Shown here: piece after piece, positions 9,001 through 18,000 of the stretch
Position numbering within the stretch: the stretch's first letter is position 1
Layout: every line of letters starts with the position of its first letter
From: Perkinsus olseni
Lineage: Eukaryota
Reading direction: 5' to 3'
Length of the DNA: 54,892 nucleotides
NCBI GenBank assembly: GCA_013115125.1
Contig: JABANN010000191.1
Location: forward strand, 1-54,892
Made by a program: the position numbers

Positions 9001-12000
9001 CGGATGGATAAGGTCCTTATCATAAGGAGACCCTGATCTTGGCCCCGAGTGGATACGACATGGCCTGATAATACTAGTATAACTTCCATTAAGAACTTTA
9101 ACCCAAGCGTTCAGCATAATCGTCGCTAAGTTGAAATGAGCGTCATGTATCACAATCGGAGCCGATACGATGTCCCGAATATAACCCCGGCGACACTCTC
9201 GGCTATTGGGGGCGAACTTGAAGAGAAGGCGTTGGAAGATGAGACGAGCGCATGAATTCTGAGGCCTTGTCATTGGCAAGCTGCCAAGGACCTAAAGTAT
9301 CTCTCCAGGAATCGAGCAATTGAGAAACAACCGGCGACACTTCTCAGACAACAGTGTACGAACAAGGAGAGGATGTGCCGTTTATTGATTGGAATGCTGT
9401 TAGCAGACTGAGGGGAATGGGAAAAGCTCGAAGGCGTCAACAACACTTGCGCCTGATAGCCAGTCGCCTCCAGTCTGAGGCGAAAATAGAAGGACGTTGG
9501 ATAGAGTGAAGCTAAGCATAATAGGATTTCGTTGGACCGGAGATATGATCGACTCGTAGGTGTATGCATGGGACCCCCTCAGCCATGGCGCACAGCACGG
9601 GCGTTTGAACGGAGGTGGCGAGCGTGATGAGGAGTGGCGTCTCCGATGTTTCCCAGTCTCGCTTGCCCTACGAGCACCATAGCCCGCATAATGACCAGCG
9701 GATTCTACGGTGTTATCCTACTCCTGGGTCTCCCTAGGCCCACACCATCGCCTCAAGTCCCTGGGTATCGGGCGAACATCGAGGCTCCGTTGATAATGGC
9801 GGGCGAGTACGGAATCATCGATTTCGATAAGAGCAAGATAAGCTCTCCAAAGGATTTGAGAATGGACGTTGAAGCAGGACGCCAGAAGGATTCTCGATAC
9901 ATTGGGTTGAACTTCGAGCACGCTGATGGGAACACCTATGATGTTCAGAACGTGTCCCCGGTGATACCCCCGCACTACGCCAAGCCGTTGAGCGGGGATC
10001 TAAGAAGGAGGTGTTGGAAGGTGAGACGGACTCGTCAGTTCTACCACCTGGCGAATCCTGTCGGGCAAATGAATACGGTGAGTGAGGCTTTCCCCAGGGA
10101 TCTATCCCATGCTGCACTCGGCACCACCCTGGTGTGCCAAGTTGATGACAACACGATAAGCCTGGGGCTTTGCAAGGTGCTGGGCTTTTGCGAGGCAGAA
10201 TATGAAGAATCCGACTACATTTTCGTGATTTTAAAGCGATGGAATGGTGGAAGTCGGAGCAACCCAGGACGACCCCTACAGAGCCCCACTGTCAGCTCTT
10301 CCGTTGACCGAGCATAACGGCCACTACAGAGCCCCAGTGTCAGCTCATCTGTTGGACGAAGAGGAGAGCCACTACAGAGCCCTTCTATCAGCTCATCTGT
10401 TGGACGAAGAGGAGGGCAACCGCAGAGCCCTTCTATCAGCTCATCTGTTGGGCCCCTTAATGCCGCTCGAGCCGCTAGTCCCCCAGTAAGCGAATACTCC
10501 TCAGCGGGCCGAAAGAGGAAAGCTGATGGCGACATTATTCTCGAGTCCATCTTCCGACGGTCGGAATCCGACCAAAATCACTCACGTTGACATACCATTC
10601 GAAGAGTACTCCACGACGGACCAAGCTGATTCCACAACGAAGGAGGAGGCCTCACACGCCCCTTGGGGCGGAGAACAACAAGTAATCGTAAAACAGATGG
10701 AAGATGGCGAGATTAGAACTTATCGTAAGCTTTAGTTGAGTTGATTTCCATACGCGACGTTAACTGTGGTGTTCATCTTCTCGTTGTTGTTGCTGTTCGA
10801 TAGTACGATGCAATTCCCAGCGAGATCTTCTTGATACCATAAATGGCACAATTATCGTGGCACGAGCGGCCCCGTTATGTCTCTCTAATTGACGTTTGCC
10901 GCTTCCGCGAGCATACAAGATGACGGAACCAAGCTCATTGCGAAATCACAGCCGCCACACCTGATGGATCTCCCTCACTACCAGCTCGGCCTGTTGCAGC
11001 ACACTAGCGGACAGATTGGAGCCTATAGAAACACTAGTGACGTCATTAGCGCTACGATCATCTGAGGCATGATTATCGGGTCGCTAGTCGATACATGGCG
11101 CGACTCCATCCCATAAGGCAGTAGTAGTTTAAAATTGCAGGCCCTGCACAATTGCGTCACTGTAGTGACGAGCTTACATTGACTCAGCTCCCCTGGACAC
11201 ATCAGGCTACTCCTATTCCGCCGAAGCTGGATTACTCAGTCGTATCTGAATAAATGACATGCATACGCTGCCGAACACTGGTAGCAACTGTTGCTGAGCA
11301 ACATGATATAGCACACGAGCGTTCATTTCTTCTGCGAACTGTCTGAGAGATCGAGCAACAAAAGTTTTGTCGCTCGATCCCTTTGGCGGTTTTGCTACCA
11401 AACTGTAATGAGATTGGGTGCTTTGGTAGTTAACGAAATTTTAGGTATGAAGACGAGGATATATCGAAGAAATTCAATGAATACGTCTCCGACTATGAGC
11501 CGACGGAGCTACACATTATCCAACTCTCGAGGAGACTCAGATTCAAGCGCGGATATTCCAACCGACAAGTTTTAGATGAGGTGACTAAGGAACAGGAATA
11601 CAGAGAAGAGCTCCTAGTCTAGGAGAGCTCTCCTAGAAAACTCAACACAGACAACGCATTAGACACGTCCAAAATGGTTGCAGGAGTCTCATATTTGCAA
11701 CGTACATGCCGTTGTAGAGTTCTAAAACTGGCGCATGTCGACTCCTTATACTGTAGATTGACATATGCGCTCTACAGGATGCCACTGTAGTTCATTGACT
11801 CCTGAATTGATTCTTCGAGTTCAAAAGCTCAAGCAAACCTTTGTCAAAAGTTCTTCGTAGACCAACTCGGGCTATTCAACTCTGAGTGCCAAAGCGAAAG
11901 CCGCGATCGTCCGCTTCGGCATCCTCGGGTGCTGCTTCTCAGCCTGGCGGGAAAACTGTTTTGAAACAACTGATGTTTCTTCGTATTCGTAGTTAATAAA

Positions 12001-15000: not shown

Positions 15001-18000
15001 GAGCGGCTTTCCCCGAGACCTACTATCAGCTCATCTGCTCAAAACCATGAAGTCGCTCGAGCCGGTGGTTCCTCAGGACAAGGATACCCCTCAGTGGGCC
15101 AAAAGAGGAAAGCCGATGGCGACATAGCTCTCGAGTCTATCGTCCGACCAGATTCACGTGAGGTTGACTTTCCACTTGAAAAGTTCTCCAAGACGGGCCA
15201 AGCTGATTCCATAACAAAGGAGGCCTCATACGCTCCCTGGGATGAAGGTGAACAAATTATCGTAGAGCGGATGGAAGATGGCGAGATCAGAACTTATCGT
15301 AAGCTTTAGCAGGTTTGATACTTCATGCCTACCATGATGTTCAGGGTGATGTTCATCATTTCCTTGCTGTTGTCGTTTAACAGTACCATCGAATTCCCTA
15401 CGATAAGTGTATGACAACTCTGATAATTTATCATTTGCACGGGGAGCCCCGCTACACCTCTGTGAATGGCGTTTGCGGCTTTCGCGATCGTAAGAGACGA
15501 TAGAAACAAGCTCATGTCAAAAGTTTTGGCTCAAAACTCCAGTCGCCTTACCTGATGGATCTCTTCCAAGGCGAGCTTGATCTGTTGCAGCAAAATAGCA
15601 GATAGGTTCGCCCCTCCCTCCTCTACATATATGCCGCATATATGAGGCATATAATATGCGACACTCTTGTCCAGGCTGGAGAGTCCAGCTCCTCAGAGGC
15701 ATCATACTTTTCCTAGTCTGCCTGCTGAGCTTTTAAACAGCTGTTAATTTAAACAGCTGCTGTTTGGACACACCTGAATGAATAACATGCATACTCTACC
15801 GAACACTAGTAGCAACACGATGGTGAACACGAGCGTACATATCTCCGGAGAACCGCTAGAAAGATGGGGTACCGGAAGACTGACAGCACTGACAACGAAT
15901 TTTCCGCTATGATGAGCCAGACGGAGATAAATCGGAGAAGCCGAAGAGATGAGGCTCTGGTTGTGGGCCGATGGAACTTCAGTGAAGTTACTTCAGGTCC
16001 TCCAACTCTCCCAAAGACTCTCAAATTGACCGCAGATTTTTGGAAAAAATTTTTGGAGCTCAGGAATATTCAGGAGAGGTCCTGGCAAGAGCCTAGGAAA
16101 GCTCTCCTTCAAAATTCAACACAGTCAATATGTTAGACACATCGAGAATCGTCTTAGCAGTCTCATAGCCGGGAAGGCTGTTCGGTACTTCACGTCAACG
16201 TTCGTGGCTTTGCCTAGGTCTTCGCCTCTTTTCCGGGAGAGTCAGGGAGGTCCCGATTTCAGAATCCTTCCAGACTATATCCTTCGTGTCAGGACCCAAG
16301 TCAACCCTCGTTAAAAGTTCTTTGCTTACCAACGAGCTATTCCACTCGAATTGAGTGCCGTAGCGAGAGCCGTAATCGTTCGCTTCGGCGCCCTCCGATA
16401 CTGCTTCTCTGGCGGGAGAACTGCTGTGAGAAAGCTGATGCTTGTTCGTATTCGCTAAATGAGTGAATTCGAAGGGAATTCTGGTCGCGAATTCCCTTCA
16501 AGTGCACCTTGACGATCAGTTGAAGAAATATATTGCTTTCATCGAGAAAAGCCACGCGTCCTTCCGTCATAATGGTCATGACAGCATGCGTCTCATGAGT
16601 CATGAGTCATGACATAGGTCACCTAGATGACGGTTGGGACTATCACCCATGATAGGTGATAGTCCCAACCGTCATCTCAGGTTCAGCGACGGCTTGCATT
16701 GCAAGGACGCGGTTTTCGAGACCAACACGATGAACAACTGGATGGTCATGACGGAGACAGACATGTGAATCAAGTTGCAAACGGTGAATAGCCAGTAAAC
16801 CTCTCGAGGCAGCCAGTTGTCAAGTGACGACAACTCTCAATGAGAATCTTTGATGAACGATCAAGACTCCTTGCACGCGCAGCGGGGGCCGAGCCGCTCG
16901 GCCCGAGCGTAAGCCTTCACACTCTTCTGCTCACGTGACGAGCCTACGCCGCATGACATCTTGCTGATTTCTTCCCTTCCTTCTAGACCAACAGCTAGGA
17001 ATCCTAGCCTAGGATTGGTATTATCCACAATATTGGCATTTCTCAGCCTTCATCGCGAGGCCTCCATCCGATGACGAGGCGGACTCCATAGGCCTCGAGT
17101 CGGAACTTGACGACGTCAAGTTGACGTCTTCGAGTCGACGATTTAGTGACATACTCAATTGGAGGGGGTCCAAACTTCTGTCTACTCCACAGACAAACAG
17201 GAATACATTACACACTCTCCGGCGGAGAGTCTCCGCAGGAGAAAGCATTCTGTCCAAGCAGTGTGTCGCCTTATTACTTAGCACGCACTGCCTGTGTCGG
17301 TCATGCAGCATGACAGATGCGGCAGCTCCTGGCCACGCGGATCAGCACCACCCTTTTTCCCCGACGACGCCACAATCGACATGATCATCTGAGCAAATCC
17401 TATCATGGCACCAGCTACTTGAAACGATGCTCTTACCATCATCAGGTGTATAGTATTGAGTAAGCTGTTGATCCAACCACTGCAATCCTCGAGCTACTTC
17501 AACAGCAGCACCCATAAGCTCACTCCACAGCGTCAGCAGCTGCTCTGAATTCAACTGGCCCAAGGCCCTCTCCAGCCGCCCGGTGGTGGAGCGTCGGGAA
17601 GTGGCAGGCTCTGAGCAACACAACTACATATCACCCGACACCCGAAGAGTGACGCGCGGTTACTCAAGTCTCCTGCCCCGTCTGTCGTCTTACCGCCTCA
17701 ACCGCGGACATCCTCAGAGCCCGGCAATGCAATTGCCATAGATTTACCTGAAACCCGAAGTAATGATCGAAATACATAATCGCCGCCCTGCCCTCCTGGA
17801 TGAGGGTGGCTGAGCTTAGCGGCGCTACTTTCTTGACCAGCCGCCGAGCCCTCCTCAACAGCAGGTATGCAATTTACAGCCGAGGAAGGTGGGTTCCGAG
17901 AAGCGTAAAATACTGAAACTTTGCTTCTCTCCATCTTCAAGATTCCGCCGGCTCACCCGTCAATCGCTCCGCAATACTCTTTCGAGCCTTGGCGATGGTG

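Follow-up and report, generated by a model that had tools for sequence, protein, structure and literature searches.

Recurrent 22-nt 7-8-7 motifs in a Perkinsus olseni contig as probable scars of hAT-type transposon excision

Contig JABANN010000191.1 of Perkinsus olseni, a parasite of molluscs (assembly GCA_013115125.1), contains, within the 54,892 nucleotides analyzed here (the window), a short motif that has a different sequence at each occurrence and the same architecture throughout: the first seven bases of an 8-mer X, the complete reverse complement of X, rc(X), and the last seven bases of X. What kind of process would leave the same 22-nt design around unrelated 8-mers? An earlier note on this DNA had named five such sites (9007, 10552, 16592, 16888, and 16994) and attributed them to transposons that excise through hairpins. 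All five have exactly the form X[1-7]+rc(X)+X[2-8], and a scan of the whole window brought the number of perfect sites to 16 (Table 1). We consider it probable that each 22-nt motif is the scar of a hAT-type cut-and-paste transposon that left its site. All motif statistics given here describe this one window of the genome.

Geometry and counts of the motif

We scanned the window with the general pattern X[1..k-a]+rc(X)+X[1+b..k], in which the length k and the end trims a and b were varied. The 16 perfect sites were obtained at k = 8 with one base trimmed at each end; with the same trims no site was found at k = 6, 7, or 9-15, and at k = 8 itself all 15 remaining combinations of trims gave none. 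The peak at k = 8 that the earlier note had anticipated is therefore present in the window, and the one-base offset is exclusive. A few matches also appeared at k = 9 and k = 10 when the trims were 1 and 3; they are known k = 8 sites with a chance match in the flank, for which one in four is expected. When mismatches to the central 8-mer were allowed, we counted 16, 7, 12, and 19 sites at zero, one, two, and three mismatches, against 0, 0, 0, and 1.6 in shuffled sequence and 0, 0, and 0.2 (zero to two mismatches) in five composition-preserving first-order Markov simulations. At k = 9-11 the real sequence yielded no sites with mismatches allowed. Once overlaps were removed, 34 separate sites with at most two mismatches remained.

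Exact inverted repeats with arms of at least 7 nt show the same restriction. Those with a 1-nt centre numbered 64 against 3.6 expected, whereas spacers of 0 and 2-12 nt stayed at chance level (0-9 observed, 1.6-4.6 expected); even palindromes, with spacer 0, were found twice (2.6 expected). Among the single-centre palindromes, arms of 7, 8, 9, 10, and 11 nt occurred 44, 13, 5, 1, and 1 times, and because these numbers drop geometrically the longer arms can be taken as chance extensions of an intrinsic arm of 7 nt. Half of these palindromes (32 of 64) sit in the 16 perfect motifs, and most of the others are halves of decayed motifs. No constant sequence is common to the sites: each motif has its own sequence, and all 22 nt come from the local 8-mer.

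Short inverted duplications beside their source also arise without a transposon, by template switching of a polymerase or by snap-back synthesis when random breaks undergo end joining. Such events have no fixed length, whereas all 16 perfect sites have k = 8 with offsets of 1 and 1 and the neighboring lengths have none. Moreover, a single cut at one unduplicated 8-mer could not yield three copies without a prior duplication, so a prior insertion would be required. An origin of this kind is very unlikely.

Table 1. Perfect, decayed, and variant motifs, together with predicted genes, in the 54,892-nt window.
Feature	Position	Target 8-mer	Strand	Remark
Perfect 7-8-7 motif	248..269	AAAGCAAC		
Perfect 7-8-7 motif	956..977	TTCCCAGT		
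Perfect 7-8-7 motif	2637..2658	GTCCTTGA		
Zinc-finger/Dzip-like ORF	5122-			
Perfect 7-8-7 motif	5670..5691	CGTCTTAG		
One-mismatch motif	7011..7032			
Perfect 7-8-7 motif	9007..9028	GATAAGGA		
Perfect 7-8-7 motif	10552..10573	TTCCGACC		paralogue copy A
Perfect 7-8-7 motif	12556..12577	CTTCCATC		
Single 8-mer without motif	15142..15149	GTCCGACC		paralogue copy B, counterpart of 10552
Decayed motif, 2 mismatches	15516..15537			copy B
Perfect 7-8-7 motif	16592..16613	CTCATGAC		
Candidate hairpin scar, non-stereotyped	16614..16677	CATAGGTG		adjoins the motif at 16592
Perfect 7-8-7 motif	16888..16909	GCCGAGCG		
Perfect 7-8-7 motif	16994..17015	GCTAGGAT		
Perfect 7-8-7 motif	17106..17127	CTTGACGT		
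Perfect 7-8-7 motif	17215..17236	CTCTCCGC		
Perfect 7-8-7 motif	18866..18887	GTCACACC		
Vps54 exon	19549-20481		minus	99% identical to a P. olseni protein, 78% to P. chesapeaki
Abhydrolase_2 esterase	36150-			
Perfect 7-8-7 motif	37115..37136	ATCCATTG		
DEAD-box helicase	40708-			
Candidate variant scar	43967..43999			two target copies
Perfect 7-8-7 motif	44643..44664	CGCTTTCA		
Perfect 7-8-7 motif	48648..48669	ATCGCAGC		30 nt outside a 911-aa ORF
TMTC O-mannosyltransferase	50726-			
Other six one-mismatch motifs (starts)	11282, 15975, 18088, 44065, 45035, 49044			

The motif in paralogues and in other strains

Within the window an old duplication has left two copies, 9441-11017 (copy A) and 14002-15608 (copy B), that are 75% identical. 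At 10552 copy A is longer by exactly 14 bases, and copy B has at the corresponding place one 8-mer with one substitution, so that the description of the motif as an addition of 14 nt, already made in the earlier note for this pair, holds in the alignment of the two copies. At 15516 it is copy B that carries a motif, with two mismatches, and copy A is without these 14 nt near 10946. Judged from this alignment, 10552 and 15516 would be two independent events that followed the duplication. The duplicated unit, with open reading frames (ORFs) at 9.6-10.7 kb and 14.2-15.3 kb, represents a protein family found only in Perkinsus and without a Pfam domain; it was considered as a possible transposase and rejected.

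The 10552 motif sits in sequence that codes in copy B (protein P0006) and in a further member of the family, P0007. Both proteins run uninterrupted across the site that is broken in copy A and, because they read through it, the uninterrupted state is ancestral at 10552. A 1-nt deletion follows 10 nt downstream of the motif in copy A; the two together produce a frame shift, and the deposited gene model P0008 omits the interrupted region. If the motifs are excision scars, such scars can break genes, as in copy A.

A comparison with a diverged strain led to a similar picture. Of the sampled 31-mers, a fraction of 0.30 is common to the window and strain S4 (runs X7 and X8), whose divergence is estimated at about 4%. 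In the S4 contigs position 16598 is joined to 16652 through one C, which gives a single 8-mer, CTCATGAC, with no 22-nt motif; the palindromic block at 16614-16677 is likewise absent. Two S4 contigs also differ from the window by exactly 14 nt, the one over 16652-17176 being shorter and the one over 11044-11639 longer. The 16592 site has an alternative reading as a 7-nt tandem repeat, TCATGA being self-complementary. The earlier note had raised the possibility that the motif might prove to be the ancestral state; in the paralogues and in S4 it appears as a derived addition of 14 nt.

Runs X1 and X2 come from two studies, and contigs rebuilt from their short reads contained 12 of the 13 perfect sites in positions 1-20000 without differences. 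Since these contigs reproduce the sites, an artefact of the assembler is excluded; the runs may represent the source strain itself and add no independent biology. The motifs can fold and they cluster in one region, as might a selected functional hairpin, for example a protein-binding or RNA element. Their sequence differs at every site, however, the decay series looks neutral, and the motif is absent from the paralogues and from another strain. With the short-read contigs from two studies reproducing the motifs independently as well, a functional hairpin or a sequencing or assembly artefact is scarcely credible.

Two further differences were seen in S4. The 51-nt stretch 5655-5705, which holds the 5670 motif, is replaced by 6 nt. 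The change resembles a deletion of 42 nt between direct repeats of TTATG and as such would be uninformative on the origin of the motif, although the loss hints that scars can vanish again through microhomology. In one S4 contig (run X8 only, with 30 nt on the shorter side) a 177-nt GT...AG segment, 8262-8438, is skipped, which might reflect an intron that is present in one strain and absent from the other, or else a processed copy.

Excision of a transposon as the origin of the motif

Excision of a hAT-type element would produce the motif in three steps. On insertion the element would duplicate the 8-bp target X. On leaving, its transposase would nick one base into each flank and close the flank as a hairpin. 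The Hermes transposase reportedly nicks one base into the flank in this way and seals it as a hairpin. The left hairpin would then consist of X[1-7] and rc(X), in that order, and the right one of rc(X) and X[2-8]; the centre of each palindrome would be complementary to the base that had adjoined the element, and the two 15-nt odd palindromes would overlap in rc(X). Finally, host enzymes would open or resect each hairpin 8 nt or farther from its tip, the 3′ tails would anneal through the 8-nt rc(X)/X homology, and flap trimming and gap fill-in would leave X[1-7]+rc(X)+X[2-8], 14 nt more than the single target. This model accounts for the length of 8, for the loss of one base per side, and for the lack of any constant sequence derived from the element. 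The k = 8 peak, the exclusive offset, the excess of odd palindromes (64 against 3.6), and the derived 14-nt addition all support the hairpin-excision interpretation with which the earlier note began. The assignment to a superfamily is drawn from the geometry of the hairpin, and the label hAT thus refers to a chemistry and not to an identified element.

Two palindromic sites of other proportions support a hairpin origin. At 16614-16677 the left palindrome arm is about 5 nt, and the right palindrome has 26-nt arms with one mismatch and a centre, G at 16651, that is the complement of the first base of the target. At 43967-43999, 19 palindromic nt stand between the two target copies in place of 8: 9 from the left and 12 from the right, with an overlap of 2. 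The 7-8-7 form accounts for 16 of the 17 perfectly recognizable scars. Lone odd palindromes were also observed at 514 and 11364. Their arms are of 15 nt with one mismatch each, no target copy adjoins them, and they may be scars where one flank lost its duplication.

Other elements that form flank hairpins deserve consideration. Mutator-like elements (MULEs) combine duplications of 8-10 bp with such hairpins (PMC5499845). In the available part of that source, however, the hairpin of the MULE Muta1 has 43+43 nt and no offset, which predicts a 24-nt X+rc(X)+X product, and Muta1 excision in yeast is precise in more than 90% of cases. With trims (0,0) the window has no site at any k from 5 to 13, nor does it have motifs at k = 9 or k = 10, and MULEs as the source are highly improbable. 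It is unlikely, to a lesser degree, that the same kind of excision was carried out by another superfamily with 8-bp duplications (Merlin relatives, Zisupton, Novosib, or an undescribed one) sharing the one-base-offset hairpin. No hAT element was identified in the window, the other 8-bp-duplication families have unknown cleavage chemistry, and Merlin-related ORFs occur in P. marinus, Merlin duplications being 8-9 bp (PMC8101967, in part). On the other hand, in the literature found, one-base-offset flank hairpins are documented for hAT-type elements only (PMC5873905, in part), and the accessible text of PMC8101967 describes the P. marinus Merlin copies as lacking recognizable terminal repeats or duplications. 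A mixture of 8- and 9-bp duplications, as in Merlin, predicts motifs at k = 9, of which the window has none.

Several results weigh against hAT-type excision. A Pfam search of 120 of the 130 stop-to-stop ORFs of at least 100 aa (the 10 touching N runs were excluded) found no transposase domain. A search for an exact 8-bp duplication with 12-nt terminal repeats, allowing up to two mismatches and a distance of 30-8000 nt, gave no credible element in the window; its two matches, each of 6-8 kb and spanning host genes, were judged to be chance by estimate, with no control run. No report of hAT elements in Perkinsus was found in the literature searched. The earlier note had proposed to look for empty and element-filled alleles in other strains: the single-8-mer state is present in S4 at 16592, and an element-filled allele was seen at no site. 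The spacing of loose contig ends was not what an 8-bp duplication would require. The two 14-nt differences of the S4 contigs are assigned to no specific motif. Two-way comparisons also do not by themselves polarize the change, because a motif could revert to the single 8-mer if slippage between its 6-nt direct repeats removed exactly 14 nt. Lastly, short footprints of the plant type, whose filler is 1-3 nt, occur at about the chance level (4 observed, 2.5 expected), so repair would need to be unusually uniform; precise excisions would leave nothing visible.

Such uniformity may have its cause in the host. We tentatively propose, as a possibility that falls somewhat short of probable, that Perkinsus repairs hairpin-capped breaks almost only by annealing through the 8-nt target, each visit of a low-copy hAT-like element ending in a fixed 14-nt insertion. 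Weak or missing tip opening or classical end joining may be responsible for this near-exclusive route.

After formation, the behavior of the sites fits neutral decay. Equal mismatch classes are expected under such decay, and the roughly flat spectrum (16, 7, 12, and ~17) fits long, steady production. With about 12 sites in each class, 22 bases open to mutation in each scar, and 55 kb of sequence, we arrive at a rough estimate of one scar per 200 substitutions per base, which would be an ordinary transposition rate for a low-copy element. Were the near-exclusive annealing route real, scars at about one per kb and about one per 200 substitutions would constitute a major class of indels.

Distribution, significance and comparison with known systems

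None of the 34 sites with up to two mismatches lies inside a stop-to-stop ORF of at least 150 aa, though these ORFs cover 37% of the window. The first 20 kb contain 24 of the 34 sites and 40% of the non-ORF space, and five perfect motifs fall within 700 nt, at 16592-17236 (P = 0.0012). This cluster is compatible with local hopping, which is a property of Ac. When the 34 targets were symmetrized, a weak bias, nTYnnRAn, emerged, with a pyrimidine at position 3 in 49 of 68 cases and T at position 2 in 24 of 68; the Ac/Hermes group prefers nTnnnnAn.

Around the motifs, the window encodes the predicted genes of Table 1. A metagenome scan for relatives of Vps54 returned 266 pattern matches, none of which was confirmed. 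Two internal duplications exist besides that of copies A and B, 13228-13995 with 24374-25161 and 17423-17868 with 22965-23411, and the identity of all three pairs is 75-82%. Three N runs of 95-98 nt (2233-2330, 12913-13007, and 33107-33201) each border a perfect tandem array, whose repeat unit is 40, 18, or 27 nt long, respectively; short-read contigs end there and depth increases. They look like assembly gaps within minisatellites.

Excision footprints are usually too short and too varied to be recognized, and the history of cut-and-paste transposition is mostly invisible. The Perkinsus scar is long and uniform, and the number, age, and spacing of past excisions, as well as the rate of excision relative to point mutation, could become readable from sequence. 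If nearly every visit does end in annealing through the target, the scars would form a datable, genome-wide trail of transposon movement, local hops included. They could also reveal by which route this little-studied alveolate parasite repairs hairpin-capped breaks. Through the scars, non-coding DNA gains dispersed 22-mers able to form hairpins, and at least one scar has hit the coding part of a gene copy.

Among known processes, short template-switch mutations likewise place a local inverted copy beside its source, but they have no fixed length or offset, while the Perkinsus motif is rigidly 7-8-7. The P-nucleotides that RAG leaves at V(D)J coding joints, and Transib, are similar in that a flank hairpin opened off-centre adds palindromic bases. 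Hairpins made by RAG and Transib lack the one-base offset, and the duplications of Transib measure 5 bp. In the window, unlike what these systems would give, even palindromes are not enriched (2 against 2.6). Muta1 resembles the proposed element in its flank hairpins and in its duplications of 8-9 bp, and differs, as far as the available part of the source describes it, in an offset-free hairpin and mostly precise excisions (PMC5499845); its predicted 24-nt product is absent here.

A close likeness is to Ac/Ds in plants, budding yeast, and Candida, where, in the accessible text of PMC5873905, the palindrome centre is the complement of the element-adjacent base, as expected of a flank hairpin, and joining is guided by microhomology. 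According to the same text, Ac/Ds palindrome arms in yeast reach up to 20 nt and 88-89% of footprints involve microhomology. Ac/Ds footprints are nevertheless varied, with 28 types among 128 Candida events and arms mostly of 3 nt or less (PMC5873905, same part), whereas P. olseni shows one predominant product that uses the full 8-nt duplication as homology. The Ac/Ds footprints are, moreover, products of reporter assays, and the Perkinsus scars would be natural genomic relics at about one per kb. We found no description of the 7-8-7 product or of its genomic abundance in the literature searched, although the yeast Ds papers of Yu et al. (2004) and Lazarow et al. (2012) may list the product. 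The hairpin and microhomology chemistry is thus known from Ac/Ds; as far as we have seen, neither so uniform an outcome nor its density as a record in the genome has been described.

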